Part shown: positions 31,102-47,529 of the stretch, one piece after another
Layout of the letters: each line of letters begins with the position of its first letter
Position numbering within the stretch: the first letter of the stretch is position 1
NCBI GenBank assembly: GCA_910588025.1
Contig: CAJUQG010000004.1
Span: 3,086 to 67,085 of the forward strand
Direction: 5' to 3'
Length of the DNA: 64,000 bases
From: an uncultured Bacilli bacterium
GTDB lineage: Bacteria > Bacillota_I > Bacilli_A > RF39 > UBA660
Notes under the pieces: model-generated
Database searches by the model: none
Told to the model about the DNA's origin: nothing
What the model saw: the letters and a program-made list of their open reading frames with translations, nothing else
Position numbers and translations under genes: made by a program

Positions 31102-31128
31102 GCATTTATAAAAATAAGTGCTTTTTTT
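31100..31128 (+). terminator. terminator after the ABC gene
   Basis: A 6-bp stem AAGCAT/GTGCTT with a 12-nt loop is followed by TTTTTTT. Confidence 0.45.
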
Positions 31129-31187
31129 GACAAAATAAGTCAAAATAAATCCTTGATAGATAATAGAAATATCTTTATAGTATAACG

Positions 31188-31314: not shown

Positions 31315-31332
31315 ACATATAATGTTTAGTAC

Positions 31333-31361
31333 TTGACAATACATAGTAGTTGTACTATGAT
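31333..31361 (+). promoter_or_regulatory. padR promoter with a perfect operator-like inverted repeat
   Basis: TTGACA is separated by 17 nt from TATGAT. The inverted repeat CATAGTA-gttg-TACTATG (31342-31359) lies between the -35 and -10 elements. Confidence 0.55.
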
Positions 31362-31382
31362 CATTTTAGAAAGGGGCGGGAT

Positions 31383-31703
31383 ATGAATACCCAATTTAAA
31401 AAAGGCGTTTTAGAATTATTAGTCCTTGTCATTGTAGAAAAACAAGACCGGTATGGGTATGAACTTGTGGAAGCAGTAAGTAACATTGTTGATGTCAATG
31501 AAGGTACGATTTATCCAATTTTAAAACGTCTAACCAATGAAGGATATTTTGAAACATATTTAGAAGAATCCAAAGAAGGTCCAGTAAGAAAATACTATCA
31601 TATAACCGTCGGTGGAAAAGAACATGAAAAAAAACTATTAAAAGAATGGCTGACATTTTCAAATAGTGTAAATGATTTTATTAAAAGGAGTGAAGAAAAG
31701 TGA
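31383..31703 (+). CDS. PadR family transcriptional regulator
   Basis: KGVLELLVLVIVEKQDRYGYELVE ... GTIYPILKRLTNEGY matches the PadR winged-helix domain. A GAAAGGGGCGGGAT RBS lies upstream. Confidence 0.8.
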   Translation: MNTQFKKGVLELLVLVIVEKQDRYGYELVEAVSNIVDVNEGTIYPILKRLTNEGYFETYLEESKEGPVRKYYHITVGGKEHEKKLLKEWLTFSNSVNDFIKRSEEK

Positions 31704-33169
31704 CCAAAGAAGAATTTGCCAAAAAATTGCGCGAGCGATTAGATTTATTAGAAGAAAAAGAAATTGATGATATCATCGAAGAATATTTAGGTTACATCGA
31801 AGAAAAAATCGGAAATGGTGCAACTGAAGAAGAAGCGATTAAAGATTTTGGAGATATTGATGAATTAGCGCGTGAATTATTAAAAGCCTATAAAATTAAT
31901 GTCAAACATCAACCCAAAGAAAAAAATATTTTAAGTACAATTGCTGATACGTTTATTTTATGGATGGATCGTTTTGTAAAAGTATTTTCAAACAAAAGTA
32001 GTAGTGAAGTGTTAAAGCTAATCATTGAAATGGGCATCATTTTATTAATAATATCACTTTGTAAAATACCATTTTATATCTTGGAAGAAATAGGTTATGA
32101 TATGTTTAACATTTTTCAAAGTCAATTTGCTAGAGGACTATTTAAAATATGGAAATTTTTATTAGAATTAATTTATTTAGTTTCGGCTGTCGTTCTATTT
32201 GCCAAAATATTTGAAAAACGATATCTAAATCATGAAGTAGAAAAAACATTACCATTGCCTAAAAAAAGAAAAGAAACCATCGAAAAAGAAACAAAGATAG
32301 AGAAAGTAATTACTGAGAAAACTCCCAAAAATGGACTGATTGATTTATTATCTTCTTTATGTATATGGTTTATCAAATTTATTGCTTTTTGGATTTTATT
32401 TGGAATTGGTTGCTATATACTTGGTTTAGCAATTTGTGTAGGAATATGTGTTTATTTTTTAATACGTGGTGTAGTTTTCTATGGAATCTATCTTGCCATT
32501 TTCATGCTACTAGTTTTAGGAATTCTTGCCTTTATTGTTTTATTTAACTTTATTGCAAATAAAAAAAATAATTTAAATTTTCTATTAATTGCCTTTTTAT
32601 CTAGCTTTATTATCTTAGGAATTAGCTTTAGTGCTGCTTCTTTAGAAATAACAGAATTTGAGTGGATAAATGAAACACCAGACTCATATCAAAAAGAAAC
32701 TATAACCGAACTAATTCCTATGAAAGATGATTATTACATTGATCATTTTGTAAATTTTGTAGTCGATGAATCGTTAGAAAAAGAAATAAAATTTGAATAT
32801 ATTTATTTTCCAGAACATTATAAAATAAAACCAAATATTAAAATAAGTAATAATAGTATTTATGTTAATTATAGTTTTATGAATCATAGCTGGAATGTTA
32901 GAATTTTAGAAGATATCATTGACAATTTAAAAAATCATAAATTATATAATTATGATTTATCTCCTCGAATTACAGTTTATACAAGTAGTGCTAACATAGA
33001 GCGTTTAAAAGAAAATCGCCGTCTATCATATGATCAAAAAAAATATCAAAACAATCGTTATCGCTTCTGTCAGGAAATTATCTATGAGGAAGAAAAAGAT
33101 TCTGAACTTTATCACTACTGCCATAAATTCTTAGAATTACCAGAAGAAGCATTAGAAGATCTAGATTAG
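31700..33169 (+). CDS. DUF1700-type membrane protein, PadR-associated putative sensor/anchor
   Basis: The N-terminus MTKEEFAKKLRERLDLLEEKEIDDIIEEYLGYIEE...EEEAIKDFGDIDELAREL matches DUF1700. Multiple TM helices are present, and the gene overlaps padR by 4 nt. A terminator AGATCTA-gat-TAGATCT plus T7 lies at the stop. Confidence 0.65.
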   Translation: MTKEEFAKKLRERLDLLEEKEIDDIIEEYLGYIEEKIGNGATEEEAIKDFGDIDELARELLKAYKINVKHQPKEKNILSTIADTFILWMDRFVKVFSNKSSSEVLKLIIEMGIILLIISLCKIPFYILEEIGYDMFNIFQSQFARGLFKIWKFLLELIYLVSAVVLFAKIFEKRYLNHEVEKTLPLPKKRKETIEKETKIEKVITEKTPKNGLIDLLSSLCIWFIKFIAFWILFGIGCYILGLAICVGICVYFLIRGVVFYGIYLAIFMLLVLGILAFIVLFNFIANKKNNLNFLLIAFLSSFIILGISFSAASLEITEFEWINETPDSYQKETITELIPMKDDYYIDHFVNFVVDESLEKEIKFEYIYFPEHYKIKPNIKISNNSIYVNYSFMNHSWNVRILEDIIDNLKNHKLYNYDLSPRITVYTSSANIERLKENRRLSYDQKKYQNNRYRFCQEIIYEEEKDSELYHYCHKFLELPEEALEDLD

Positions 33170-33230
33170 ATCTTTTTTTGTGACGATATAATTGCAGATT
33201 TGTGGTAAAATAAAATAGAGGGTAAAAAAT

Positions 33231-34160
33231 ATGGATGAAAAAATTAGTATGATAGAACGATATGGTGAGGTTTTAACAAGCAAAACATATCTCACCGATC
33301 CTGCAATCGCAAGAGAAGAAGAAATCAAACAATGTATTTTAACACTGTTAACACCAGAAAAAAGTGCGTTATTAGTTGGTAAACCTGGTATAGGTAAAAC
33401 CGCTATTGTAGAAGGTCTTGCGTATCGGATTCAAAATGACTTAGTTCCCGTTGCCCTAAAAGGATGGGAAATTGTCAAAATCAATATTACAAGTTTACTT
33501 GGTACAACCATCAGTGAAGGACAAAAAGAAAACCGTATTGACTTATTAGTAAAAGAATTAAATACGAAAGAAAAAACGATTCTATTCATTGATGAAACTC
33601 ATGTATTAGTCAATAAAAACACAAGTGAAAATGGGGGAATTGATTTTGCCAATATGTTAAAAGCTGGCTTAGACCGTGGAACTATTAAAATGATTGGTGC
33701 TACCACGACAGAAGAATATGAAACATATATTTTACGAGACCGTGCCTTCTTAAGAAGATTTCAAAAAATTGATGTCTTAGAAAGTAATAAAGAAAATACC
33801 GTAAAAATATTAATGGGTACTACCCCTAAACTTGAAAAGCAAATTGGCGTAAAACTTGATTATACAGATTTTATTAAAGAAAAAATTATGGCTTTTATAG
33901 TAGAAATGACAGATGAATATAAAAGAGTATATGAAGTTGCTAGTAGATACCCTGATATTTGTTTAACAATTCTTGCTAACGCTTTTACTTATGCTGTTTA
34001 TGAAAACTCAGAAGTTTGTAAAATAAAACACATTTATAAGGCTATATGTAATGCTAGAAATGTTTATGAAGATGTAAAGAAAAAAGAAATAGAACGCTTT
34101 AAAATTGAATTTGCTGATTTAATTGTTGAAGAAAATGTAAATTTAGAAGAAATAGAATAG
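33231..34160 (+). CDS. stand-alone ClpA/ClpB-type AAA+ D1 domain protein
   Basis: [31 protein letters not shown]...[20 protein letters not shown]...[11 protein letters not shown]...[28 protein letters not shown] is collinear with the ClpB D1 large and small subdomains. The protein is only 309 aa, with no N-domain, middle domain or D2. Confidence 0.7.
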
Positions 34161-34173
34161 AGAGAGGTTTTTT

Positions 34174-35259
34174 ATGGAAAGAAAAATTAAATTATTTCAA
34201 ATAGGCTGTGGAAAGATGAGCAAATTTATTTTGCGTTATGCCATCGAGAAAAATTGTGAAATAGTGGGAGCTGTCGATTGTAATCCAAAAATGATTGGTA
34301 AAAATTTAAATGCAATCGAAGAAAATATCAATACAAAAATTACTATTGAAGATAATGATAACTTAGAAGAATTGTTATTACAAAGTAAACCTGATATTGC
34401 TATTATAACTACCATGAGTACTTTAAATGATATTGCAAATACATTACGAATTTGTGCTAAATGTGGAATCAATACCATAACAACCTGTGAAGAAGCTTTT
34501 TTTAGTGAAAATTCAAATCCAACTCTTCATGAAGAAATTAACCGATTAGCAAAAGCTACCAATTGTACGATTACTGGTGCTGGCTATCAAGATATTTTTT
34601 GGGGAAGCTTAATTTCTTCGATTGCTGCTTCTACTCATAAAATTACAAAAATCAAAGGAAGTTCCAGTTATAATGTGGAAGACTATGGGATTGCTCTTGC
34701 CGATGCTCATGGTGCTGGATTCACAAAAGAAAAATTTGAAAAAGAAATTGCTTCATTAGATAACATTTCTTCCAAAGAACGTGAACAGTTAATTCAAAAA
34801 CGAGAATTTATGGCTAGTTATATGTGGAATGTAGTAGGATGGCTTGCCGACAAATTAGGATTAACAATTATTGATATGGACCAAAAATGTCTTCCTATTC
34901 TGGCAACCGATGATTTGGAATCTAATACACTAAATATGACAGTTCCTAAAGGTATGGTAAGAGGAATGAGTGCAGTTGTACTTGCTCACACCAAAGAAAA
35001 TATTGAAATTGAAGCAGAGTGTATCGGAAAAATTTATACTGATGAAGAATGTGATAAAAATGAATGGACCATTTTGGGGGAACCAGATACGACAATTGTA
35101 GTAAATCGTCCAGCAACTTCTGAGCTAACTTGTGCTGATATTGTAAACCGTATTCCAGATGTCATAAATGCACCAAGTGGTTTTATTCCCACTAGTCGTT
35201 TCAAAGAACCAGAATACCGCTCTCAAAATTTAAATGATTATGTCGAAAAAGAACAATAA
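34174..35259 (+). CDS. DapB-like NAD(P)-binding oxidoreductase, possibly the amine/2,4-diaminopentanoate dehydrogenase family
   Basis: An N-terminal Rossmann motif LFQIGCGKMSKFIL is present. The length is 361 aa and the DapB-like N/C-domain order is conserved. The specific substrate cannot be determined. Confidence 0.45.
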   Translation: MERKIKLFQIGCGKMSKFILRYAIEKNCEIVGAVDCNPKMIGKNLNAIEENINTKITIEDNDNLEELLLQSKPDIAIITTMSTLNDIANTLRICAKCGINTITTCEEAFFSENSNPTLHEEINRLAKATNCTITGAGYQDIFWGSLISSIAASTHKITKIKGSSSYNVEDYGIALADAHGAGFTKEKFEKEIASLDNISSKEREQLIQKREFMASYMWNVVGWLADKLGLTIIDMDQKCLPILATDDLESNTLNMTVPKGMVRGMSAVVLAHTKENIEIEAECIGKIYTDEECDKNEWTILGEPDTTIVVNRPATSELTCADIVNRIPDVINAPSGFIPTSRFKEPEYRSQNLNDYVEKEQ

Positions 35260-35313
35260 ATTCGTTGTTCTTTTTTGTTATTTGCTTTACAATATAATAG
35301 TAAGGTGAGTAGA

Positions 35314-36720
35314 ATGAATAATAAAAAGAAAATAATATTGTTATTTCTACCGATTATTGTTATCGTGTGTCTTTCTTTGTTGTTTCGTGAAGACTTTCAT
35401 CTAAAATATTTCAAAAATCAATTAGAAATTGAAGTAGGAACTCCATTTTTATTAAAAGATTTTGAAGTATGTTATGGCAATTATTTTCGTTGCCAGCAAG
35501 CAACATTCAAGATGATAAGTGAAGAAATAGATACGACAAAATTAGGAAGTTATCAAGTGAAATATAAATTATCATATGAGAATCAAGAAAAAGAAATTAG
35601 TCAAGAAATTGACATTGTAGATCATACGCCACCTCTTTTGGAGATCAATTCAGATGACTTAATGATTTGTCAAAATGGTAAAATTTTAAATGTTGAAACG
35701 AAAGCGACAGATAATTTAGATGGCGATATTACAAATCAAATCTCTTATCATGTGGAACAAAATGAAATCGTGTTTGAAGTTTTAGATAGAGCAGGAAATA
35801 AAACCGAGAAACGAATATTGGCAAAACCAGATAATGTCTTTCCCGAAATAAAGTTAAAAGGCGAAAAATTTATTAATATCAAACAAAATACTGAATATCA
35901 AGAACTAGGAGCTACCGCGATAGATAATTGCGACGGAGATCTTACAGAAAATATTATCATCACGGGGGAAGTTAATACAAAAGTGCTAGGAGAGTACCAC
36001 ATCACTTATCAAGTGCAAGATAGTAACGGTAATAATAGCAAAACAGAACGAATTATTAATGTTCAAGAAGAAAATAAATATGTTGGGCCAACTGGCAAAA
36101 ACATTTACTTAACTTTTGATGATGGACCAGGACCCTATACTGGAGATTTGCTAGATATTTTACAAAAATACCATGTAAAAGCCACTTTTTTTGTTACCAA
36201 TCAAGGATTAACAAAAGGTTATGACCATTTTATCAAAAGAGCATATGAAGAAGGACATACCATCGGCTTACATACTTCTAATCATGATTACAAAACAATT
36301 TATCAAAGTGAAGAAGCCTATTTTAAAGATTTATTCGAGATTCAAAAGAAAGTAAAAGACATCACAGGATATGAATCAAAAATAATACGTTTTCCAGGAG
36401 GAAGTTCTAATACAATTAGTAAATTTAATCCAGGAATTATGTCACGTTTAGCCAAAGAAGTAGAACAAAAAGGATTTCGTTACTTTGATTGGAATTTGGA
36501 TAGTGATGATGCAGGAAGAGCTAAAAATATGTCTATGGTATCTGCAAATGTAATAAAAGGGCTTGGCAGTGGAACTCATTATGTCGTTTTACAACATGAT
36601 ATAAAAAAATATAGTGTCGAAGCGGTAGAAGCAATAATACAATACGGACTATCCCATGGCTTTCAATTTCGCGCTTTAACAATGGATTCTCCAAGTACTC
36701 ATCATCGTATTAACAATTAA
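35314..36720 (+). CDS. polysaccharide deacetylase (NodB homology domain) with N-terminal Ig-like (DUF5011-type) repeats
   Basis: The NodB motifs IYLTFDDGPGPYT and HTSNHD are present, with an N-terminal TM helix. Repeated HTPP...DNxDGD and NCDGDLTENI segments occur. A TAAGGTGAG RBS and a TATAAT lie upstream. Confidence 0.75.
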   Translation: MNNKKKIILLFLPIIVIVCLSLLFREDFHLKYFKNQLEIEVGTPFLLKDFEVCYGNYFRCQQATFKMISEEIDTTKLGSYQVKYKLSYENQEKEISQEIDIVDHTPPLLEINSDDLMICQNGKILNVETKATDNLDGDITNQISYHVEQNEIVFEVLDRAGNKTEKRILAKPDNVFPEIKLKGEKFINIKQNTEYQELGATAIDNCDGDLTENIIITGEVNTKVLGEYHITYQVQDSNGNNSKTERIINVQEENKYVGPTGKNIYLTFDDGPGPYTGDLLDILQKYHVKATFFVTNQGLTKGYDHFIKRAYEEGHTIGLHTSNHDYKTIYQSEEAYFKDLFEIQKKVKDITGYESKIIRFPGGSSNTISKFNPGIMSRLAKEVEQKGFRYFDWNLDSDDAGRAKNMSMVSANVIKGLGSGTHYVVLQHDIKKYSVEAVEAIIQYGLSHGFQFRALTMDSPSTHHRINN

Positions 36721-36748
36721 AAAAAATCTCTGTGTTGTGAGACTTTTT

Positions 36749-36952
36749 TTATTTATTAATAGCTTTTAAAATTAGAATAAGGGAAACCGCAAGCAAAATA
36801 GCACCAACAAAAAGATAAATTGTAGCTTCACTAAAATATTGGGCCAAGAAAGAATAAATAACATCCCAAGTATCTCCTAAAAGTTCTTTTACAGTATTCA
36901 CAAGATCTTGAAATATGGAATGAAGTTCGTTGCCAAAAAATGTAAGGAACAT
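36749..36952 (-). CDS. small membrane protein (hypothetical)
   Basis: The 67-aa protein has a C-terminal TM helix and is convergent with the deacetylase gene. A weak RBS GGAAGTGGTGA is present. Confidence 0.3.
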   Translation of the reverse strand: MFLTFFGNELHSIFQDLVNTVKELLGDTWDVIYSFLAQYFSEATIYLFVGAILLAVSLILILKAINK

Positions 36953-37029
36953 TTCACCACTTCCCTTTCAAAATAATTATAAGATACTCTTGCAATTTAA
37001 TCAATTATTTGTTAAGATAACCATGTTAT

Positions 37030-37106
37030 GGCGGAATTGGTGAAGTGGTTAACACGGCAGATTGTGGCTCTGTTATGCGTGGGTTCGATTCCCACATTTC
37101 GCCCCA
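37030..37106 (+). tRNA. tRNA-His (anticodon GTG) with genomically encoded G-1
   Basis: An extra 5' G precedes the acceptor stem GCGGAAT/ATTTCGC. The anticodon stem GCAGA/TCTGT encloses loop TTGTGGC, giving GTG. The T-arm is GTGGG-TTCGATT-CCCAC, with discriminator C and an encoded CCA. Confidence 0.85.
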
Positions 37107-37354
37107 TATTGAATTTTACACACATCTTTGTGTGAAAGCTAAAGTAAAAGTTCGTGATATTTGATATTATGAACTTTTTTTTCCTTACCAGAGGTAATAA
37201 ATTGAAAAAACATTCCATTATTTTATAAACAGAATATAAAAAAACAAAATAGATAAGAGTCTACAAAAAAGTATTTTAATGATTTATATTCTGTTCCTGT
37301 ATATATTTTTTCTAATGAAGGAATAAAGCATAAAAAAATAGAAAGGAACAATTT

Positions 37355-37453
37355 ATGGAAGAAACTAGATTATCTCAAATTAATGATACTGAATTAACTG
37401 ATGAGCAAATTGACAATATTGTTTATTCAGATATAGAAGATGATGGATTATGA
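37355..37453 (+). CDS. acidic 32-aa small ORF (hypothetical)
   Basis: The translation is MEETRLSQINDTELTDEQIDNIVYSDIEDDGL. An RBS AGAAAGGAAC lies 7 nt upstream, and the ORF sits between tRNA-His and the AIPR-like gene. Confidence 0.25.
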   Translation: MEETRLSQINDTELTDEQIDNIVYSDIEDDGL

Positions 37454-37603
37454 ATAATAAGGTAAACTTTTAACTAGAGTTGCCTTTTTTGTTACTCTTT
37501 TATAAGATATAAAATAAAAAGAAAATTTTACCAATTGTGATAGTAATTTTAGTTTAAAACTTTAAAATATATTGTATAATATTCGTATTTGTAGGTGATT
37601 ATT

Positions 37604-39289
37604 ATGAAAAAATTTATTCGTCATCAAAACAATATGATTTTTGTAAGTGATGATAATTTTAAAACGTTTGATACATTACATAAAGAATCAATAGATGCAA
37701 TAGAAGAAACAAATCATGATACTATAACACAAGTAAAACTACGTTATATGTTATCAGAGAAAAAAGCAAATATTATAATAAAAGAGTTAAAAGCTATTCG
37801 TAAACAATTTAAATTAGAAAAAAAAGACGGTTATGGTTCCTCTTTTGAAATCTTTGCTATTTCTGTATTATATAATTTAGATTATCAAGAAACCTATGAT
37901 AATTTTATTGTAACAGGTAATAATGATGGAAAAGTTGATGCCATTTATTGGTATGGAAAAGAATGTATTTTATATCAAATTAAACTTGGAACATGTGATG
38001 TTGAAATTAAAAATATAATTAATAAAAATCATTTAGAATTCTTAAGAGATAATACGATCACAGAAAAAAATACTTCTGATTTATTAAAATTTTATCAAAA
38101 TCATTCAAATGAAATAAAAGAAAAAAACTTTAAAATCAAAACAATATCTCAAAATTTAAAGAATAAAGCCAATATATCTCCACTTGAAATTATGGAAAAA
38201 TACTTTGAAAATAAGATTATTAATCAAAAAAATCACCTAGTTTTAAAACTAAGTATTCCTAAAAAAACAAGATCAGATGATGTTACTACCTTCTTGATAG
38301 CACAAAGTAAGAATGAAGTTTATGCTTATTTTATATCTGCTGAAAAATTAAAAAAAGAATTATTAAATTGTAGTGGTATCAAAAATATTGAAAATCTTCA
38401 CAAGTTTTTCTCAGAAAATGTTCGTGGCGATTTAGGACCCAATAAAAATATGATTCATACCATAAAAGCTAATCCCAAAAACTTTGTAAAATATAACAAT
38501 GGTATAACAATTATGGGAAATGTCGAATACAAGGAAGAGATAGGCTTATTAACTATCACGAATCCTATTATTAATAATGGTCAACAAACACTTTGGAATT
38601 TATTAACCCAAGAAACCGTAAAAGATGTTGAAGTTCTTGTAATAGTCAAAAATGATTCAAAGCCTTCCGTGAAAGATAAAATAGCTCGTTTTACAAATGA
38701 ACAACGACAAATAAAACCTGTTGATCTATACTCATTAGATGAAAATTTAAGAAAGATTCAGATTGATTTATACCAAGATAAAGAATTTCGAGAAGAAATG
38801 TTTTTAAATATTAATAAAAGTGGAAAAAAGCAATATGACATGTTAATGAAACAAATCTACTCCTCAGAATCCATAATTCAAGTAGATGAGTTTTGTCGAT
38901 TATATTTTTCTACATCAGATAATCAAATAGGAAAGTGGAAGAATAATATTTCCAGCATGATTGAAAATCAGTTAGATGAAAGTCCATCTTTTGATTTTGC
39001 AAAAGCCAAAAAAATCTGCCAAATTATAAAAACTTTTAAAGTAGAATTAAAGCAACTGAGTAAAGAAGAAAAGAATGATTTAAAAGCCGCTGACTTAGCA
39101 ACAATGTATATTATGTATACAGCTAAAAAAACGTTTCAGGAAGCTTTTGAAATAATTAAAAAGATTAATCTGGCTAATTTTTATGAAGTACCTATTTCTC
39201 AAAGAAAAAGTAAATTAATAGACCTATATAAAGTGGATAGTATTTTTTATTTAATTCAAAATGAAATAAAAACGGCTGTAACAAATTAA
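37604..39289 (+). CDS. AIPR-like abortive-infection-type protein with an N-terminal PD-(D/E)xK-like nuclease motif
   Basis: The N-terminal region ...SSFEIFAISVLYNLDY...GNNDGKVDAIYWYGKECILYQIKLG matches the D...(D/E)xK pattern of Mrr/AIPR-type domains. The protein is 562 aa and lies in an AT-rich region after a tRNA. A GTAGGTGA RBS and an extended -10 TGTATAAT are present. Confidence 0.4.
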   Translation: MKKFIRHQNNMIFVSDDNFKTFDTLHKESIDAIEETNHDTITQVKLRYMLSEKKANIIIKELKAIRKQFKLEKKDGYGSSFEIFAISVLYNLDYQETYDNFIVTGNNDGKVDAIYWYGKECILYQIKLGTCDVEIKNIINKNHLEFLRDNTITEKNTSDLLKFYQNHSNEIKEKNFKIKTISQNLKNKANISPLEIMEKYFENKIINQKNHLVLKLSIPKKTRSDDVTTFLIAQSKNEVYAYFISAEKLKKELLNCSGIKNIENLHKFFSENVRGDLGPNKNMIHTIKANPKNFVKYNNGITIMGNVEYKEEIGLLTITNPIINNGQQTLWNLLTQETVKDVEVLVIVKNDSKPSVKDKIARFTNEQRQIKPVDLYSLDENLRKIQIDLYQDKEFREEMFLNINKSGKKQYDMLMKQIYSSESIIQVDEFCRLYFSTSDNQIGKWKNNISSMIENQLDESPSFDFAKAKKICQIIKTFKVELKQLSKEEKNDLKAADLATMYIMYTAKKTFQEAFEIIKKINLANFYEVPISQRKSKLIDLYKVDSIFYLIQNEIKTAVTN

Positions 39290-39304
39290 CCTTAATGTTA
39301 CAGC
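39274..39304. terminator. bidirectional terminator between convergent genes
   Basis: A 9-10-bp stem GCTGTAACA/TGTTACAGC spans the stop codon and is followed by TATTTTTAAAATTT. Confidence 0.55.
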
Positions 39305-39327
39305 TATTTTTAAAATTTAAATTAAAA

Positions 39328-40881
39328 TTATAATTCAGTATATTCACTTGTTTTATTAAGTTGATTCTCATGTTCGTTGATAACTAAACTTTTTGTTGTA
39401 AAAAGCATCGTGGCAATCGAAGTGGCATTACACAAAGTAGTTTTTGTTACTTGAAAAGGATCAATAATAGAAGAATGTGTGACATTTTCAAATTTTTCCG
39501 TATTAACATTATATATTTTTTGAAAATTATTTTTTTTAATTTCCTGATATATTTTAGAAGAATCAAGACCAGCGTTTTCAAGAATTTGAAAAAATGGTTT
39601 TTGCAAAGCTTCTTTAAAAATAGCTTTAACTTCATCTTTGGCTTCTAATTCTTCTGCTATTTTTAAAAGTGTGACGCCACCTCCAAGTAAAATGCCATCT
39701 TCACAACTAGCTAAAGCACAAAGTGCATCTTCTAAACGCATCTTTTTTTCATGACATTCTGTTTTTGTAGGAGCTCCAACCAAGATTTCTGCTAAACCGT
39801 TTTGAAACATAGCAATTCGTTTTTGATAAAAAGCAAGTTCAAATTCATCATGATATTCGTTCATTTCATTCTTTAATAAATCAACATATTGCAAAATTTG
39901 AGAATTATTTTGAAAGTCAAAACGAGCTTGATTTTTGTTAATCATAATATGTTCAATAAAACCTAAATTTTCTGGAGTAATAAAATGATAATTTTCTATA
40001 ATCTTTGCATGCGTAAGCGCTTCAATATCGCTTTCTAACTTTCTTTGATGTAAACCATATTCTGAAATTTTTAAAACACAACAAGAAAGCTCATTACTTA
40101 AATTCAAAGATACAATTTCTTTGAAAGCTGTTTCATCATATTCATTTACAAAAATAATCAAAGGTTCCTTATTTTTCATACAATCATTTAAAATAAAACT
40201 AATGTTTTCTAAGTTACTTAAATAATCATGAATAATTAATACTTTGGCGTTTGTAAAAGTAATATTAGTTTGTTCTTTTAGAAAATAATCACTTAATAGT
40301 TCTGTTTCAACGGTATATCCTTGTAAATAATTGATAGTTAATTGATTTTCTAAAACCTCTTTTATCATGATTGCGTTTTTACTTTTTACTGTTTGAAAAG
40401 CTTGAAATGCACAATTTCCTAAATAATTATCATTTGCAGCAATTGTGGCAATTTGTAACAAATTATTTTCATCGGGTTTTCTGGCTTCAGTTTCCAGAAT
40501 ACTTAATATTTCTGATAAGTAAAGATCCATTTTTTTCTTTAAAAAAATGGGATTGATTCCTTTTTCAATATATGTAAGACTGGAATTAAAAAGACTTTGT
40601 AATAAAACTAAGGTCGTTGTAGTTCCATCTCCAACAATATCATTCGTTTTTAAAGAAGCTTCTTTAGCAATTTCTAAAATAGTATTAACAACCTCATCTT
40701 CGCTCACTATATTTTTAGCAATTGTAGCTCCATCATTTGTAATAAAAGGGGTAAATAAAGAATGGTCAATAATAACATTGCTTCCTTTTGGTCCCAAAGT
40801 ACACCCAACTGTATCACACAAAGAATTAATACTTTCTTTCATCTTTTCTTGCAATAATGTTCCACTAACAACTTTTTTCAT
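39328..40881 (-). CDS. divergent Cpn60/TCP-1 family chaperonin-like protein
   Basis: The chaperonin equatorial-domain signatures TLGPKGSNVIID, FITNDGATIAKNI, IVGDGTTTTLVLLQ and ILLGGGVTLL are present. The protein is 517 aa with no GGM tail, and no co-chaperonin is nearby. Its ATG overlaps the upstream gene stop (ATGA on the minus strand). Confidence 0.6.
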   Translation of the reverse strand: MKKVVSGTLLQEKMKESINSLCDTVGCTLGPKGSNVIIDHSLFTPFITNDGATIAKNIVSEDEVVNTILEIAKEASLKTNDIVGDGTTTTLVLLQSLFNSSLTYIEKGINPIFLKKKMDLYLSEILSILETEARKPDENNLLQIATIAANDNYLGNCAFQAFQTVKSKNAIMIKEVLENQLTINYLQGYTVETELLSDYFLKEQTNITFTNAKVLIIHDYLSNLENISFILNDCMKNKEPLIIFVNEYDETAFKEIVSLNLSNELSCCVLKISEYGLHQRKLESDIEALTHAKIIENYHFITPENLGFIEHIMINKNQARFDFQNNSQILQYVDLLKNEMNEYHDEFELAFYQKRIAMFQNGLAEILVGAPTKTECHEKKMRLEDALCALASCEDGILLGGGVTLLKIAEELEAKDEVKAIFKEALQKPFFQILENAGLDSSKIYQEIKKNNFQKIYNVNTEKFENVTHSSIIDPFQVTKTTLCNATSIATMLFTTKSLVINEHENQLNKTSEYTEL

Positions 40882-41627
40882 ATTTCATTTTCCATTTCTA
40901 TCATATATTTCCAATATTTTTTGGGCATAAAATTTCTACGACAGCGGTCGTTTTTCCGAGTTTCTATTCCAATCGTTTGATAAAACAATTTCCATAATTT
41001 CTCCATTTCCCATTCTTGTTGACTAAGCTTTGTAGTACTAAGCTTAAAATCATTTTCAGAAATTAGAATATACTTATGTTTATCATATATACTTAGTATT
41101 CCTCTTTTTACATCTTTAATAATCCAATATTCTTGTTTTAAACGTTTTTCAAAATGATGAGAAATAAAATAAAGAATATCATTTAATGGTTCTATTTCTG
41201 CATAAAGAACATGATTGTCTAATTCTTTAAATCGAATAAACCCTTTATATTTATGAGCTTCATGTAAAACATATTTTGAAATGGTAATGGCTTTCGTGAC
41301 ACATTTCAAATTTCGGTGGTATAACAGCTGATCTTTATATTTAAAACCATTTAAAATTAGATAATAAATAATTAGCTCTTTGTTCTCTTCAGTTGATAAA
41401 AAAACGTAATAAATCGTACGATAAGTATCTGGTCCCATTTCTTGAATAAGATTTGTAATAAGTTCTGGATCTTCAGAAATTTCTAAATGAATAATTTCAT
41501 CTAATAAAGTAGGGGAATAATAAGTATTTTGAATATTTCCAGGTTTCATTTTATTTTTTATAAGAAAATAGATTAAATTAAGTAATTGTACAAAAGTATC
41601 ATCATAAATATAACAACTATTATTCAT
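40878..41627 (-). CDS. UDG-related probable DNA-metabolism protein (TIGR03915-like partner of the radical SAM protein)
   Basis: The N-terminus IYDDTFVQLLNLIYF and the C-terminal core HKYKGFIRFKELDNHVLYAEIEPLNDILYFISHHFEKRLKQEYWIIKDVKRG match this family. The protein is 249 aa, and a TGAGGT RBS lies upstream. Confidence 0.65.
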   Translation of the reverse strand: MNNSCYIYDDTFVQLLNLIYFLIKNKMKPGNIQNTYYSPTLLDEIIHLEISEDPELITNLIQEMGPDTYRTIYYVFLSTEENKELIIYYLILNGFKYKDQLLYHRNLKCVTKAITISKYVLHEAHKYKGFIRFKELDNHVLYAEIEPLNDILYFISHHFEKRLKQEYWIIKDVKRGILSIYDKHKYILISENDFKLSTTKLSQQEWEMEKLWKLFYQTIGIETRKNDRCRRNFMPKKYWKYMIEMENEI

Positions 41628-42834
41628 GAAATAACCTCAATTGCTCATGAGGTCTAGAAGTAGGAAGTATTTCTTCATATACCAAGTTTTTTTCAATAAA
41701 CTCTTTTTTAAAAAGTTGTGGATTCATAAAATATTTTCCATTGCACGTAATAAAATATTTAGCTCGTTTTAACACAACACCCATTTTTTTTAAGTCATCA
41801 AATGATACTTGAAAAATACGTCGTGAAGACAAAATTCGTTTAGCAGACTTTACACCAATTCCAGGAATTTTTAAAAGATCATAATAAGAGCAATGATTAA
41901 TTTCTTTTGGAAATTCTTCTATATGTCGTAAAGCCCAATCAGCTTTCGGGTCAATTAAAATATTAAAATTAGGATTTTTTTGGTCTAAAAGATCACGAAC
42001 TTGAAAATGATAAAAACGTAGTAACCAATCTGCTTGATAAAGACGATTTTCTCTCTTTAAAGGTGGCTTTTCTAACGATGGTAAGAATGAATCATGATTA
42101 ACAGGAATGTAAGCAGAATAAAAAACTCGTTTTAATTGATAATTATTATATAATGACGCGCTTTTCTCCATGATATCTAAATCACTTTCTTTTGTTGCAC
42201 CAATAATCATTTGCGTACTTTGTCCAGCTGGAACAAAATGCTTAGTTTGATTTTCTTTCACATATCCCATAATTTTTTCAACTTTAGTTTTATCTTTGTT
42301 CGGAGCTAAAAGTTTTAAACCATGTTCTGTTGGTAACTCAATATTAGCGCTTAATCTATCAACAAGCAATCCAAGTTCTTTTAATTTTTTTTCACTAGCT
42401 CCAGGGATTGCCTTTGCATGAATATATCCTCCAAAATGGTATTTTTTTCTCAAAAGTGTAATGGTTTGAACCAAAAGGTCCATCGTATAATCTGGACTTT
42501 TAATAATTCCTGAACTTAAAAACAAACCTTCTATATAATTGCGCCGATAAAAGTTTAATGTAATTTCACAAATTTCTTCTGGTGTAAATATAGCTCTTGG
42601 AATAGAATTACTTTTACGATTTAAACAATATTTACAATCAAAAATACAACAATTCGTCATAAGTATTTTTAAAAGGGAAATACATCTTCCATCAGAAGAA
42701 AATGAATGACAAATTCCTGAAAAAGCTACATTACCAATTCCATTTTTTGATGTTCTAGTACTTCCACTAGATGAACAAGAAGCATCATATTTTGCACTAT
42801 CAGCTAGAATTTTTAGCTTTTCTTCTAAGTTCAT
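41620..42834 (-). CDS. radical SAM protein with a C-terminal helix-hairpin-helix (TIGR03916-like putative DNA modification/repair rSAM)
   Basis: The N-terminus EEKLKILADSAKYDASCSSSG and the 4Fe-4S motif CIFDCKYC (Cx3Cx2C) are present. A C-terminal helix-hairpin-helix LLKIPGIGVKSAKRIL is also present. A GGTGA RBS precedes ATG 42834, and the reported ORF extends to a TTG at 42846. Confidence 0.8.
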   Translation of the reverse strand: MNLEEKLKILADSAKYDASCSSSGSTRTSKNGIGNVAFSGICHSFSSDGRCISLLKILMTNCCIFDCKYCLNRKSNSIPRAIFTPEEICEITLNFYRRNYIEGLFLSSGIIKSPDYTMDLLVQTITLLRKKYHFGGYIHAKAIPGASEKKLKELGLLVDRLSANIELPTEHGLKLLAPNKDKTKVEKIMGYVKENQTKHFVPAGQSTQMIIGATKESDLDIMEKSASLYNNYQLKRVFYSAYIPVNHDSFLPSLEKPPLKRENRLYQADWLLRFYHFQVRDLLDQKNPNFNILIDPKADWALRHIEEFPKEINHCSYYDLLKIPGIGVKSAKRILSSRRIFQVSFDDLKKMGVVLKRAKYFITCNGKYFMNPQLFKKEFIEKNLVYEEILPTSRPHEQLRLFHE

Positions 42835-42920
42835 ACCAATCACCAAAAATTATTATAATATAACAGCCAGCAATAATCAAACAAAAGTTTGTGTTAATTT
42901 ATTCCATTTATATAAATTTC

Positions 42921-43106
42921 TTAACTATTTTTTTTGACTCTAGATAAAGTTTTTGTTTGATTTAACTGCGACCCAAATGTATCATAATTAGGATTTTGAT
43001 TCGGTTGATAAAAAGACTCAAATTGCTTTTGTTTCTCTTCTTTTTGCAATTGTTGTTTTAATGGAAAAATAGGATTAACTTTTTCTACCTTTTGAATTAG
43101 TTTCAT
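42921..43106 (-). CDS. small Q/K-rich hypothetical protein
   Basis: The 61-aa protein from ATG 43106 has a GAGGT RBS and the translation MKLIQKVEKVNPIFPLKQQLQKEEKQKQFESFYQPNQNPNYD... Confidence 0.3.
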   Translation of the reverse strand: MKLIQKVEKVNPIFPLKQQLQKEEKQKQFESFYQPNQNPNYDTFGSQLNQTKTLSRVKKNS

Positions 43107-43254
43107 AGTAACCTCGCTTTTTAAAATATATGAAAAAGAAAAAAGATAATGATAAAAAAAGGAAATAGCCGATTCATATCGAATAATGATAATGAGGAGG
43201 TAAAAAATATTCAAAATACCAAATTTTTGCTATACTAAGTAAAAGGTGTTTGGT

Positions 43255-44139
43255 ATGAAAAAAAGATATTATTGGCTCATTATTATATTAATAGGTAGTA
43301 TTTTGGGAATTATCCAAACTTCATTTAGCTTTCAAAATGAAGAACATTTAGAACAAAATTGGGAAGGAGAACAACAAAAGAATAATAATTTTCTAAAAAT
43401 TCACTATTTAGATGTAGGACAAGGTGACGCAATATTTATTGAATTACCAAATCAACAGAACCTTTTAATAGATGGTGCAGAATCCAAAGAAAAAGAAAAG
43501 ATAATAGATTATATAAATAGATTAAATAAACAAAAAATTGATTATTTAATAGCAACGCATCCTCATGCCGATCATATAGGTGGACTGGCCTCTATCATAG
43601 AACAATTCGATATTGGTAAAATTTATATGCCCAAAGCAATTTCGACCAGTAAAACATATGAAAATCTATTAAAGACGATTATTAATGCCGATTTAAAAAT
43701 AGCTACTGCCAAAAAAGATTTAATCATTTTAAATGATGAAAATTTAAAAATGCAATTTTTATCTCCCCAAGAATCTCATTATCAAGATTTAAATAATTAT
43801 TCTGCTGTATTAAAAATAACTTATCAGAAGCATAATTTTTTGTTTATGGGAGATGCTGAGAAATTAATTGAAGATGAAATCACTGAGGATGTAAACGCAG
43901 ATATTATTAAAGTAGGTCATCATGGAAGTAATACTTCATCTAGTTTAAATTTTGTGAATCGTGTATCTCCCAAATATGCAATCATATCCGTTGGTTCAAA
44001 GAATCAGTATCAACATCCTCACAAAGAGATTATTAAAAGATGGCAACAAGTCGGTGCTCAAGTATTACAAACCGATTTACATGGAACCATTATAGCTCAG
44101 TCAGATGGATTTAATTTACAAATTAAAACAGAAAAATAG
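43255..44139 (+). CDS. ComEC/Rec2-related metallo-beta-lactamase domain protein (stand-alone)
   Basis: HYLDVGQGDAIFIE, ATHPHADHIGG and VGHHGSNTSS match the ComEC C-terminal MBL domain. An N-terminal TM/signal, an extended -10 TGCTATACT and an AAAGGTG RBS are present. Confidence 0.75.
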   Translation: MKKRYYWLIIILIGSILGIIQTSFSFQNEEHLEQNWEGEQQKNNNFLKIHYLDVGQGDAIFIELPNQQNLLIDGAESKEKEKIIDYINRLNKQKIDYLIATHPHADHIGGLASIIEQFDIGKIYMPKAISTSKTYENLLKTIINADLKIATAKKDLIILNDENLKMQFLSPQESHYQDLNNYSAVLKITYQKHNFLFMGDAEKLIEDEITEDVNADIIKVGHHGSNTSSSLNFVNRVSPKYAIISVGSKNQYQHPHKEIIKRWQQVGAQVLQTDLHGTIIAQSDGFNLQIKTEK

Positions 44140-44154
44140 AAAGTAAGTGAAGAA

Positions 44155-44364
44155 ATGAAAGTAATAATTGACCGTTTTGAAAAAGATATGGCTATCATTG
44201 AAATAAAAGAAGGTGTCTTCACACACATGCCGAAAATTCTCCTTCCTCATGCCAAAGAAGGCGATGTAGTGGATATTATTGTAAATAATAAAGAAACAGA
44301 AGAAAGAAAACAAATGGTGGCTGATTTGATGAATCGAGCATTTGAAAGTGAGAGCGAACAATGA
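44155..44364 (+). CDS. DUF3006 family small protein
   Basis: MKVIIDRFEKDMAIIEIKEGVF matches the DUF3006 N-terminus. This family is characteristically adjacent to ComEC-type MBL genes. Confidence 0.6.
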   Translation: MKVIIDRFEKDMAIIEIKEGVFTHMPKILLPHAKEGDVVDIIVNNKETEERKQMVADLMNRAFESESEQ

Positions 44365-44615
44365 AATTTGACCATTTAATCAAAAATATTATCGCTGAAA
44401 AGAAAACTGTTTTTATGAATGATAGCTTTACTTTAACAGAAGAACAAGTTAGCGTTTTAAATCGATATAATATCCCCTTTGAATCTTGTCATTCTACTCA
44501 AGAATTAATTTTTTGTATCGAAGAAGTATTAGATAGTGGCATAATGGATGATTCGTTAGAAAGTATTTCCATTTCACTTGCTGAACATGATTATTATCAA
44601 AATTATAAAAAATGA
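44361..44615 (+). CDS. hypothetical protein
   Basis: The 84-aa ORF begins in an ATGA overlap with the upstream gene and has no recognisable motif. Confidence 0.35.
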   Translation: MKFDHLIKNIIAEKKTVFMNDSFTLTEEQVSVLNRYNIPFESCHSTQELIFCIEEVLDSGIMDDSLESISISLAEHDYYQNYKK

Positions 44616-44616
44616 C

Positions 44617-45069
44617 TTAGTTTAATAGCCATACTCCTACATTTAAATAAAGAGCAAAAAATAGCCAAAGAATGTAAGGAATAAAAAGGTAAAAACTTTT
44701 TTTCTCTAAGTAATAGTAAAAATACATAAGATAACCTACTAAAAAAATTAAAATAATAATCCAAATAATTGAAAAAAATCGCCATTTGACTAAGAAAAAT
44801 AACAAGGCCCATGAAAAATTAAAAAATAATTGTCCATAATATAATATTTTAACAAAGAAATCGTTGTTTTCTTTGCGATACAAGTAATAAGAAATACCAA
44901 TAAATAGATAAAGAATAGACCAAACAATTGGAAAAATAAAACTTTTGGGAGCAAGAAAAGGTAAAGTTAATTGATTATAATCAATTTGATTTTTAATAAC
45001 GAAACCTATAATAATTCCACCAATTATTGGAAAAAAAATAGAAAACAAATGTTGAATTTTATTGGTCAT
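44617..45069 (-). CDS. TspO/MBR (tryptophan-rich sensory protein) family membrane protein
   Basis: The 150-aa protein has 5 TM helices and a W/Y-rich sequence (LPFLAPKSFIFPIVWSILY ... NFSWALLFF ... PYILWLFFALYLN). An AGGTGA RBS lies 4 nt before the ATG on the minus strand. Confidence 0.6.
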   Translation of the reverse strand: MTNKIQHLFSIFFPIIGGIIIGFVIKNQIDYNQLTLPFLAPKSFIFPIVWSILYLFIGISYYLYRKENNDFFVKILYYGQLFFNFSWALLFFLVKWRFFSIIWIIILIFLVGYLMYFYYYLEKKSFYLFIPYILWLFFALYLNVGVWLLN

Positions 45070-45150
45070 GAAATCACCTATTAAAGAATGATATGTAATA
45101 AAAATTAGAATATGAGTAAAATGGTGATACAATAACAAAGGGTGTTTCCT

Positions 45151-47529
45151 ATGCAGTATTTAATCATAACAAATGAATTAGATAAAAAAAGAATCCTAAA
45201 AGAATTACGAAAAGAATTCCCTTTTTTAAATGCTAAAGTATTAGGATATCGAGAACTGATTCAAAATTTATATTTTAATTATACAGAAGAAACCATCTAT
45301 TATATTGTTGAAAAATATCAAATAACAAAAGAAATAGCGATCAATTATTTAGAAAATTTATACTTTATAAATTTTGAAAAAACGAGCTATCCCAAATTAA
45401 TATTTCTCCAAAATTTATATCAAGAATTATTACAAGCAAATTTATTAAAAATAAATCCATTATGGAAAAAAGATTTAAAACAAAAAAAAATAATATTTTA
45501 TCATTTAAATCAAAATGATAACTTTTTTCAAAAAATAATGAGAGAATGCCAAAAGATTACTAAGATAGAGCAAATTGATTGGTCGATAAAAGAAGACCAA
45601 AAAATAACACTAACACCTTATTTAAATAGGGAAAGTGAAGTCATTGGAATTTGTAATCAAATTTGTGAATTAATAAAAACAGGCAAAAAAATATCAGATA
45701 TATATTTAGCAAATTTATCAACAGAATATTATAATTTATTGGAAACTTATGCTTCTTTTTTTCATTTACCAATTAATTTAAAGAAAAAAGAAACATTTTA
45801 TTCTAGTTTTATAGTTACAGACTTTCAAGAACTATATGTAGATGATTTAAAAACTGCAATAAAGAAATTACAAGAAAAATATCCTAAGGAAGAAGAAAAA
45901 ATTGTCTTAGAATGGATTATTTCCATTTGCAATAAATATATTTTTATAAAAGATGAGCAAAAGAAAAAACAATTTATCTTAGAAGATTTGAAAAATCAAA
46001 AAAAACCGAATCAAAAAATTGAACTAGGGATACAAGAAATTGATTTTTATGAAAATGAAATTTCCGAAGATTCCATCTTATTTCTATTAGGTGTTAACGA
46101 AAGTTTTTTTCCTAAAATTCAAAAAGATGAAGCATATTTAAGTGATAAAGAAATGCACGCATTAGGTTGGAATACATCAAGTGAAAAAAATGCTTTAGAA
46201 AAAGAGAGATGTTTAAAAAAATTAAAAACTTTTTCTTCCGTTTGTTTATCTTATCCTAAGAAAGATGGGAAAATCGATTTATATCCATCTAGTATTTTAG
46301 ATGAGCTTATTTATGAAATAAAAGAACCAAAAGTTAATCATCAACATTCTCATATTTACAATTTATTAGAATTTGGTCAAAAAATGGACCAATATTACAA
46401 ATATGGGACAAAAGATGAAAATTTAGAAAATCTATATAATACTTATCCAAATGTTTATAATTCTTTTAAAAATGAGTACACCCAAATAAAACGAAAAGAA
46501 AAAGACCCAATAAAGTTATCTTATTCTTCTTTAGATACATTTTTTCATTGTAGCTTTAAATATTATTTAGACTATATTTTACGGTTAAATGATCATGAAG
46601 AAAATTTTGCTCAGAAAATAGGATGTTTATTTCATGAAATACTAAAAGATTGTTACAATTCTAATTTTAATTTTGAAAAATCGTGGCAAGAACATATTGA
46701 AAATTTTACCTTAAAAGAAAAGCAAGAATATTATTTTTTAAACAAACTACAAGAAGACTTAAAAAGAGTGATTAATACATTAAAAAAACAAGAAGATGGA
46801 AAAAGTTTTAATATAAAAACAGAAGAAAAGATTGTGATGTCACTAACCGATGACAATAGAGTACAATTAAGTGGTATCATGGATAAAATCTTTTGGAAGG
46901 AAAAAGATGGAAAGACTCTTGTAAGTGTAATAGACTATAAAACAGGTAATCCTTCATTAAGTCTAGACGAAACTCCACATGGCTTAAATCTTCAATTACC
47001 AATTTATTTAATATTATTACATAATTTACCTTTTGAAAATATTAAAGTCATAGGTTTTTACTTACAAAAAATATTGCCATCGCTTCCAGAACGAGATGCA
47101 GTCCACAGTGAAAATGAATTAAAAATGAAAAATTTATTACTTCAAGGATATAGTACAGATGAAGAAAAGTTTTTAAAAGAATTTGATCCTTCTTATCAAG
47201 ATAGCAAACTAATTAAAAGTATGAAAATGAGTTCCAAAGGATTCTATCCTTATTCTAAAATATTAAGTGAGCAAAAACTTCAAAAATTAGAACAAATAAC
47301 CTTAAATAAAATAAAAGAAGCCATAAGAGATATCCAAAATGAAAATTTCTCTATCAATCCAAAAAGGTTATCTAATAATTTAATAGGTTGTGCTTATTGT
47401 AATTATCAAAGTATTTGTTTTCGTAAGGAAAAAGATATTGTAAATTTAAAAGAATTAAAAGCAAGTGAATTTTTAGGGAGTGATAACATTGCCAACATGG
47501 ACGAAAGAACAGAGCGATGCCATTTATAA
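45151..47529 (+). CDS. addB: helicase-nuclease complex subunit B (AddB/RexB-like)
   Basis: A C-terminal nuclease domain is followed by an Fe-S cysteine cluster (CSFKYY ... CAYCNYQSICF). The gene sits directly upstream of addA, and an AAGGGTG RBS is present. Confidence 0.8.
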   Translation: MQYLIITNELDKKRILKELRKEFPFLNAKVLGYRELIQNLYFNYTEETIYYIVEKYQITKEIAINYLENLYFINFEKTSYPKLIFLQNLYQELLQANLLKINPLWKKDLKQKKIIFYHLNQNDNFFQKIMRECQKITKIEQIDWSIKEDQKITLTPYLNRESEVIGICNQICELIKTGKKISDIYLANLSTEYYNLLETYASFFHLPINLKKKETFYSSFIVTDFQELYVDDLKTAIKKLQEKYPKEEEKIVLEWIISICNKYIFIKDEQKKKQFILEDLKNQKKPNQKIELGIQEIDFYENEISEDSILFLLGVNESFFPKIQKDEAYLSDKEMHALGWNTSSEKNALEKERCLKKLKTFSSVCLSYPKKDGKIDLYPSSILDELIYEIKEPKVNHQHSHIYNLLEFGQKMDQYYKYGTKDENLENLYNTYPNVYNSFKNEYTQIKRKEKDPIKLSYSSLDTFFHCSFKYYLDYILRLNDHEENFAQKIGCLFHEILKDCYNSNFNFEKSWQEHIENFTLKEKQEYYFLNKLQEDLKRVINTLKKQEDGKSFNIKTEEKIVMSLTDDNRVQLSGIMDKIFWKEKDGKTLVSVIDYKTGNPSLSLDETPHGLNLQLPIYLILLHNLPFENIKVIGFYLQKILPSLPERDAVHSENELKMKNLLLQGYSTDEEKFLKEFDPSYQDSKLIKSMKMSSKGFYPYSKILSEQKLQKLEQITLNKIKEAIRDIQNENFSINPKRLSNNLIGCAYCNYQSICFRKEKDIVNLKELKASEFLGSDNIANMDERTERCHL

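Follow-up and report, generated by a model that had tools for sequence, protein, structure and literature searches.

The stretch analysed here, 64,000 nucleotides of contig CAJUQG010000004.1 from an uncultured Bacilli bacterium of the RF39 lineage (assembly GCA_910588025.1), is referred to below as the window. Its interval 37107-43214, immediately downstream of a tRNA-His gene, carries a small acidic open reading frame (ORF) and a gene for an AIPR-domain protein on the plus strand. An operon of three genes (the triad) converges on these from the minus strand, encoding a radical S-adenosylmethionine (rSAM) protein, a DUF4130 protein and a divergent GroEL-like chaperonin (Table 1). An earlier sequence-only reading had described the whole interval as an extremely AT-rich islet, either an old, decayed acquisition or a variable defence hotspot. 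Comparison with related genomes, designated below by L numbers, separates a variable part, with the AIPR gene, from a conserved operon. The same sequence is present in metagenome-assembled genomes from the gut labelled 'Bacilli bacterium' (JGI 3300038382, GCA_948938545.1 and others), and gene order in 15 conspecific contigs is as in the window.

Table 1. Features of the interval and its immediate flanks, in window coordinates
Feature	Position	Strand	Basis or remark
tRNA-His (GTG)	37031-37106	+	ARAGORN; Rfam, 62 bits; left anchor of the variable slot
Intrinsic terminator of tRNA-His, 15-bp stem and U-run	37146-37182	+	Folding
Variable slot, 2.07 kb, GC 0.241	37181-39249		Between the tRNA-His terminator and the bidirectional terminator
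Putative acidic small ORF, 32 aa	37355-37453	+	MEETRLSQINDTELTDEQIDNIVYSDIEDDGL; predicted by gene callers in conspecific contigs
Promoter-like site of the AIPR gene, TTTAAA-16-TATAAT	37553-37580	+	Consensus scan, 10/12 matches
AIPR/AbiU-like gene, single-gene abortive-infection candidate	37595-39289	+	Pfam PF10592
A8 homopolymer inside the AIPR gene	37818-37825	+	A7 in conspecific L102 (two contigs)
Bidirectional intrinsic terminator, common to the AIPR gene and the converging operon	39267-39312	both	Folding
Divergent GroEL-like chaperonin, 517 aa	39328-40881	-	Pfam Cpn60_TCP1, 8.6e-51; third operon gene
DUF4130/TIGR03915 protein, 249 aa, predicted rSAM partner	40878-41627	-	Pfam, 7.8e-44
rSAM protein, TIGR03916	41620-42846	-	NCBIfam, 614.3 bits against a cut-off of 343.5; first operon gene
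Operon promoter, TTGATT-17-TATAAT	42880-42852	-	Consensus scan
Palindrome CAAAC-N4-GTTTG, candidate operator over the -35 hexamer	42878-42891		Only such site in the window
Basic small ORF, 61 aa, upstream of the operon	42921-43106	-	Gene calls; GAGG ribosome-binding site
Stand-alone metallo-beta-lactamase (MBL)-fold protein, ComEC C-terminal-like	43246-44139	+	Pfam Lactamase_B, 2.7e-20

The rSAM, DUF4130 and GroEL-like operon

The first two operon genes encode a TIGR03916/TIGR03915 protein pair. Both proteins score far above the curated cut-offs of their families (216.9 bits against 112.25 for TIGR03915), and their genes are adjacent and overlap by 8 nucleotides (nt), as expected of the pair. 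The rSAM protein matches Pfam Radical_SAM, contains the CX3CX2C motif (CIFDCKYC in the translation) and has HhH matches, which are weak (E ~1e-3); gene calls and a ribosome-binding site place its likely start at the ATG at 42834, which gives a protein of 404 amino acids (aa). The chaperonin gene overlaps the DUF4130 stop codon by 4 nt, and the three genes probably form one transcript with coupled translation. The sequence-only reading had recognized the convergent orientation, the rSAM gene and the Cpn60-like gene correctly, but its assignment of the middle gene as UDG-like did not hold: the protein matches DUF4130/TIGR03915 only, and no UDG family was found with Pfam or NCBIfam. In this respect the locus differs from known TIGR03916/TIGR03915 pairs, as it lacks an accompanying UDG-family gene or domain.

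A search of GTDB species representatives with an alignment of the chaperonin family returned 288 relatives of the GroEL-like protein, the best 80 of which were examined. The order rSAM, DUF4130, GroEL-like was found in 79 of the 79 species-level loci that include upstream sequence, with genes that abut or overlap and flanks that are unrelated to one another, and the triad occurs in at least 80 species of the clade. Compared with the window proteins, identity averages 77% for rSAM, 56% for DUF4130 and 50% for the GroEL-like protein, which is the least conserved of the three in every one of the 79 loci. By exhaustive phmmer search, the chaperonin family comprises approximately 55-60 clusters (50% identity) of proteins of 493-526 aa, extending down to 33% identity and followed by canonical GroELs at 30-34%. 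The triad is intact around a member that is 33% identical (L103/L104), whereas the most similar canonical-type GroEL (L108) has Cpn10 directly upstream instead. In the sister species L010 and in L096, the operon, the neighbouring MBL gene and the flanks are collinear with the window at identities similar to those of the genomic backbone; the triad and the MBL gene are thus syntenic core genes in near relatives.

The rSAM/DUF4130 pair is widespread and has been predicted to form a repair or mutagenesis module linked to the SOS/DNA-damage response (PMC3765255). In Acinetobacter, basal transcription of the pair relies on DdaA, which activates genes of the DNA-damage response (PMC12392091), and an AlphaFold 3 complex of the two proteins has been modelled (bioRxiv 10.64898/2026.08.19.745780). 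A link to a DNA-damage regulon is likely here as in other bacteria, and the pair of the window is predicted to act, by a repair chemistry, on damaged or modified DNA. It differs from pairs known elsewhere in that, here and in at least 80 related species, a translationally coupled gene for a GroEL-like ATPase always stands third. Our literature search found no paper tying DUF4130 or the TIGR03916 rSAM family to a chaperonin.

The third protein, annotated by NCBI as 'hypothetical protein', is a group I chaperonin that has moved far from GroEL. It falls below the cut-off of the GroEL equivalog model TIGR02348 (335 bits against 582.1) and barely passes the loose subfamily model NF009487 (362 against 352); its best matches in the PDB are GroELs (1e-73 to 1e-64). 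It is approximately 28% identical to E. coli GroEL (range 24-34%), as determined with a reference sequence the motifs of which agree with the PDB alignments. Among 84 family sequences, the ATP-site residues T30, G32, P33, D52, D87-G-T-T-T, D398, G414, G416 and D495 are invariant, K51 is replaced by N in all 84, and the apical hydrophobic residues are partly retained. The R197/E386 salt bridge and the inter-ring contacts R452/E461/S463/V464 are not conserved in these sequences, and the GGM tail is replaced by a conserved NEYTE[LI] C terminus. There is no GroES gene within 10 kb of the triad in approximately 100 loci, and no CIRCE element (up to 4 mismatches allowed) near any triad in 1.54 Mb of loci.

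In several of these features the protein resembles the specialised GroEL paralogues of other bacteria, such as mycobacterial GroEL1, chlamydial GroEL2/3 and the rhizobial nif- or nod-linked GroELs. Like them, it belongs to the group I family with an intact ATP site, has no adjacent GroES gene and no GGM C terminus, evolves at an accelerated rate and sits in a genomic context that hints at a dedicated set of clients. Unlike them, it is encoded by the last gene of a predicted DNA-repair operon with a LexA-like control element in place of HrcA/CIRCE, and it is far more divergent, without conserved inter-ring contacts. Paralogues lacking the GGM tail are reported to be, as a tendency, specialised and dispensable chaperonins (PMC11978752). 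The fast-evolving paralogue may be a chaperone reserved for the iron-sulfur (Fe-S) rSAM/DUF4130 pair, using ATP to fold, assemble or activate it, a client specificity suggested by the constant company of the three genes.

It is conceivable instead that the GroEL-like protein is the sole, degenerate housekeeping chaperonin of the lineage, fixed by chance behind the repair pair and functionally unlinked to it. Loss or alteration of groESL is common among related Bacilli that are wall-less or reduced, and none of the sampled loci showed a further chaperonin gene. The protein also keeps its ATPase residues and some of the apical hydrophobic surface, and the nearest canonical-type GroEL (L108) likewise lacks the GGM tail. 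A canonical groEL/groES was absent from the 1.5 Mb of sampled loci, which would weigh against a specialised paralogue, but this absence says nothing because dnaK is absent there as well. We regard such a sole chaperonin as unlikely. The linkage holds in 79 of 79 species, stop and start codons overlapping, and it persists down to 33% identity despite shuffled flanks. A housekeeping role also accords poorly with a protein that evolves faster than an accessory rSAM enzyme and has lost inter-ring and allosteric residues, with a triad that has neither a GroES gene nor a CIRCE element nearby and a LexA-like operator instead, and with the mostly specialised character of GGM-less paralogues (PMC11978752).

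Two further chaperonin loci were encountered. The canonical-type groES-groEL closest to the family (L108:5745-7575), from an organism of 27% GC, encodes a GroEL of 524 aa also without a Gly-Met tail, and this locus has no informative neighbours in common with the loci that carry the triad. A further short GroEL-like protein, of 514 aa and 34% identical, is encoded directly after NrdD and the radical-SAM activase NrdG in L106/L107:3623-7545. This contig is phage-like in appearance (HU, NAD-ligase and many small ORFs) and represents a second case of a chaperonin beside a radical-SAM enzyme.

A conserved palindrome over the operon promoter

Alignment of the sequences upstream of the operon revealed a palindrome, C(A/G)AAC-N4-GTTTG, in 72 of 76 species-level upstream regions, located at -48 to -44 from the rSAM start. 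The match is exact at 32 of the 76 loci, with one mismatch at 29 and two mismatches at 11. When 1.54 Mb were scanned with a position weight matrix, 143 of the 156 matches scored at rSAM promoters, and the sites of L096 and L097 lie there too. The remaining sites precede genes for an MgsA/RarA-type ATPase, an SNF2 helicase (two orthologous loci), a Bro-N protein and a STAS/sigma pair.

We take this palindrome to resemble the LexA box of Firmicutes, and some loci carry GAAC-N4-GTTC outright. Its position over the -35 hexamer suggests that the operon is repressed and that DNA damage lifts the repression. The operon would then be SOS-controlled.

It is somewhat unlikely, though to be taken seriously, that the palindrome instead binds a repressor peculiar to the clade, with no connection to LexA or DNA damage, in which case the operon would not be SOS-controlled. 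The half-site is CAAAC instead of the CGAAC of Firmicutes LexA, a difference that counts against SOS control. A scan of the window for the Firmicutes Cheo box CGAAC-N4-GTTCG (up to one mismatch) gave no exact site, and CAAAC-N4-GTTTG emerged only from the cross-species alignment. A repressor private to the clade would also fit the concentration of nearly all strong sites in 1.5 Mb at the rSAM operon alone and the second conserved element upstream in 30 of the 76 loci. On the other side, the architecture is that of LexA operators, with a 5-N4-5 palindrome, a GAAC/GTTC core in several loci and overlap with the -35 hexamer, and the few other sites precede genes of DNA-metabolism or prophage type. 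The rSAM/DUF4130 pair itself has been tied to the SOS/DNA-damage response in other bacteria (PMC3765255, PMC12392091). Control by DNA damage remains our preferred, tentative account of the operator.

The second element, AAAATTN[CG]CA, lies 10-11 nt upstream of the palindrome in L017, L024, L031, L041 and others; its background rate is 0.004 per 45 nt. It is not clearly present in the window.

The variable slot and the AIPR gene

The sister species L010 is collinear with the window over 30001-37180 and 39250-49996, at 79-82% nucleotide identity, and within the reported islet close relatives differ only in the sequence between these blocks. On the left, the blastn block shared with L010 stops at 37180, that is, at the terminator of the tRNA-His gene, which has the same position in L010, L017 and L098; the three tRNAs were all the matches found in an Rfam scan. 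A smaller hairpin (37114-37137) precedes this terminator, and 37107-37190 folds with -20.9 kcal/mol (z = -4.9).

The right boundary is the hairpin between the AIPR gene and the operon, which the sequence-only reading had described as a shared bidirectional terminator. Folding bears this out on both strands (-15.3 and -16.2 kcal/mol; z = -5.8 and -5.6), with 0 of 200 shuffled sequences as good and a U-run after the stem on each strand. The core of the hairpin spans 39274-39305, outer A/U pairs extend it to the limits given in Table 1, and the AIPR stop codon sits in its loop, which was missed by the terminator scanner because it is 12 nt long. The corresponding position in L010 is occupied by another hairpin. 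As contents differ only between the two terminators, the variable unit is approximately 2 kb and not 6.1 kb.

Occupants of the slot vary both between and within species. In L010, a 1.5-kb cassette with a NUDIX gene, a 133-aa ORF and a nucleoside-2-deoxyribosyltransferase-like gene replaces the small ORF and the AIPR gene. In L016/L096, an AIPR protein that is 79% identical is encoded at the same place, preceded by genes for an ABC-ATPase with weak matches to defence ATPases, a 103-aa ORF and a GNAT protein; this contig stops before any tRNA-His. L017, with a GroEL-like protein 64% identical to that of the window, has two ORFs without family matches after tRNA-His. In the more distant L098 (backbone proteins 48-87% identical), tRNA-His is followed by LigD, a 314-aa protein with a weak type IV restriction match, an AIPR protein (55% identical), a homologue of the 84-aa protein encoded beside the window's operon, TspO and AddBA. 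The conspecific strain L102 matches the window only from 37449 onward. The sequence-only reading's variable defence hotspot therefore holds for 37181-39249, where L010, L017, L096, L098 and L102 differ, but not for the operon side, which is conserved in near relatives.

In this lineage, the slot appears to have been re-filled repeatedly with accessory genes, several of them defence-like. Such turnover looks like cassette replacement and not like integration of an element. The slot resembles tRNA-linked genomic islands and defence hotspots in that it adjoins a tRNA 3' end, has variable content and includes several defence-like occupants. Unlike such islands, it lacks an integrase, att repeats and a clear compositional signature, and its variable part is only about 2 kb long and bounded by two terminators.

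The assignment of the plus-strand gene as AIPR-like in the sequence-only reading agrees with the Pfam AIPR match (54.3 bits against a cut-off of 25, 2.2e-14, residues 274-528). The PADLOC AbiU model (2.6e-13, residues 165-546) and PHROG 1841 (phrog_1841, 'Abi alpha-like', 1.3e-15) match as well. The protein combines an N-terminal PD-(D/E)xK-like motif with the C-terminal AIPR domain; across 40 aligned homologues, E85, D111, D115, Q128 and K130, in a PD-(D/E)xK-like pattern, are invariant together with the AIPR core. Approximately 50 full-length homologues were found, and the AlphaFold model is confident (mean predicted local distance difference test score, pLDDT, 88.6). At the locus of homologues that are 46% identical, two D12 methyltransferase genes and an HNH gene lie on one side and Wadjet-like DUF2397/DUF2398/SbcC genes on the other. 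The gene is thus a candidate for a single-protein abortive-infection nuclease that would harm nucleic acid upon phage infection. Among characterized systems, lactococcal AbiUi is a single-gene, nuclease-like protein that delays phage transcription and gives weak protection (2026 review, PMC13064643).

With AbiU (AbiUi) and other AIPR proteins, the protein of the window shares the AIPR domain above the Pfam threshold, the AbiU and PHROG matches, the size (~560 aa), a putatively nuclease-like N-terminal part, a stand-alone gene and homologues in defence islands. Unlike lactococcal AbiU, to which it is only distantly related (48 bits), it has no AbiUii/HEPN partner and is encoded on the chromosome, in a tRNA-adjacent slot of an uncultured gut bacterium. 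Two results weigh against the assignment: the PADLOC AbiU model gives no match to the 55% and 46% identical homologues, and a Foldseek search of the PDB with the AIPR model gave no significant match (best E = 0.75), the weak top matches being nickase, cap-snatching and Card1 nucleases. Because of the latter, the nuclease assignment rests on the motif and the literature.

The history of the gene can be read from its divergence. AIPR identities at this locus (79% for L096 and 55% for L098) are similar to those of backbone proteins (48-87%), and the outgroup L098 has an AIPR gene at the same locus, so the simplest history is that of an old resident. The pattern fits vertical descent combined with replacement in particular lineages: the gene probably settled between tRNA-His and TspO/AddBA long ago and was replaced in sister lineages. 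Upstream of the gene, conservation with L096 begins at the promoter-like site.

The AIPR ORF is intact in the 15 conspecific contigs. In L102 (L102:578-2271), a tract of seven instead of eight A residues frameshifts and splits the gene, and the A8 tract can, by this route, inactivate AIPR. The difference could reflect phase-variable switching or decay, or may be an assembly error. That the gene is not an anti-phage gene, being a remnant in decay or a nuclease used for something else, is improbable. The frameshift in one conspecific strain, the lack of partner genes, the failure of the AbiU model to detect more distant homologues and the reportedly weak protection by lactococcal AbiU (PMC13064643) would fit such a remnant; the unbroken ORF in the conspecific contigs, the invariant motifs of some 50 full-length homologues, the confident structure model and the presence of homologues inside defence islands argue against it.

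The acidic small ORF after tRNA-His is present as the sequence-only reading had it, with coordinates corrected to those in Table 1. It has zero family matches, is species-specific and is not kept in L096, which retains AIPR; we rejected it as a partner of AIPR on the last of these grounds. L102 has, in place of the sequence upstream of 37449, the 3' end of a gene for 184 aa without a family match (L102:1-430). This gene shows 92-93% nucleotide identity over 133 nt to genes of two far more distant species (L018:3548-4102 and L021:15965-16519), the L018 copy adjoining an ABC-3C-type defence set, and may be mobile or hotspot-associated.

A composite interval

Composition sets the interval apart from the rest of the window only slightly. 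Its GC content of 0.260, compared with 0.287 for the window (z = -1.4, 11th percentile of equal-sized windows), is not extremely low; only the slot at 37181-39249 is low, at the 4th percentile, and GC is lower still at 44.2-45.3 kb and 48-49 kb. The operon has a GC content of 0.276 (27th percentile), and the dinucleotide signature of the interval is ordinary for the window. A negative GC skew at 40-43 kb arises because the operon is one of the few minus-strand blocks. Windowed GC, GC skew and dinucleotides thus give no sign of foreign composition for the interval as a whole. The sequence-only reading had noted that neither an integrase or transposase nor a repeat of the tRNA 3' end is visible, and both observations were confirmed. 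Pfam and NCBIfam gave no integrase or transposase domain for any gene of 37107-43214, and a search of 37-43.3 kb for degenerate repeats of the tRNA-His 3' end, as a 25-mer and a 15-mer with up to 3 mismatches, was negative; searches for flanking direct repeats gave AT-rich chance matches only.

An origin of all of 37107-43214 as one horizontally acquired, decayed, tRNA-linked island that brought AIPR and the triad together is very improbable on this evidence. The interval does adjoin a tRNA gene, its GC is slightly under average, and in L098 the triad, the MBL gene and the DUF3006 gene are absent from the tRNA-His to TspO interval. Absence from L098 also tells against a fixed residence of the operon, as it makes the position of the triad, though not its integrity, fluid as well. 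However, the AIPR gene stays at this locus in L098 without the triad, and the two therefore do not move together. The interval is devoid of integrative hallmarks, the operon has the GC and dinucleotide signature typical of the window, operon, MBL gene and flanks are collinear in L010 and L096 with backbone-like identity, and the triad is spread over at least 80 species. The old, decayed acquisition proposed for the entire 6.1 kb is not supported, for the same reasons. We favour, with a probability of roughly 70%, a composite of a variable slot of about 2 kb with AIPR and a conserved, probably damage-controlled triad operon with a dedicated chaperonin.

Beyond the operon, the sequence-only reading had listed a 97-aa ORF at 42921-43214, for which the 61-aa gene given in Table 1 is the more likely form. 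Its product, without a match in Pfam or NCBIfam, is 50-57% identical in L010 and L096, and the gene is kept only in near relatives. The MBL protein has a partial TIGR00361 match (147.9 bits, below the cut-off of 190) and is 70-74% identical in L010 and L096. With a DUF3006 protein and an 84-aa protein it forms a small plus-strand set (43246-44615) beside the operon, which is conserved in L010 and L096; only the 84-aa homologue of this set was found in L098.

Genes for LigD, Ku and AddAB recur within a few kb of the triad or the tRNA-His slot (L014:14759-17822, L017:5001-6413, L098:5532-6932, L103:2039-3394 and window 45142-50608), and this recurrence of double-strand-break repair genes suggests a loose DNA-repair neighbourhood. 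Nearly all genes of at least 180 aa in the window (1-64000) lie on the plus strand and cumulative GC skew climbs steadily; the triad, being among very few minus-strand blocks, is probably oriented head-on to replication. In L064, the orientation of the triad relative to tRNA-His is reversed.

In conclusion, the AIPR slot is routine in itself, another small defence hotspot and mainly an example of integrase-free cassette turnover between two terminators. The valuable part is the operon. The biochemistry of TIGR03916/TIGR03915 is uncharacterised, and the triad provides a defined three-protein set to co-express. It also adds a delimited family of atypical group I chaperonins, approximately 55-60 clusters without GroES within 10 kb, without a GGM tail or conserved inter-ring contacts, and with a client suggested by genomic context. 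In this clade the pair is bound closely to a chaperonin of its own, under a LexA-like operator, which suggests that the two proteins fold with difficulty or have to be activated with ATP. We tentatively propose, at somewhat less than even odds, a three-component DNA-damage-inducible system in a large clade of gut Bacilli, in which a fast-evolving, GroES-independent GroEL paralogue would be the obligate partner of the rSAM/DUF4130 pair, either as a dedicated chaperone that uses ATP to fold or activate the Fe-S enzyme or by remodelling at the DNA lesion. If true, this would be a case of a chaperonin recruited into a DNA-repair pathway.

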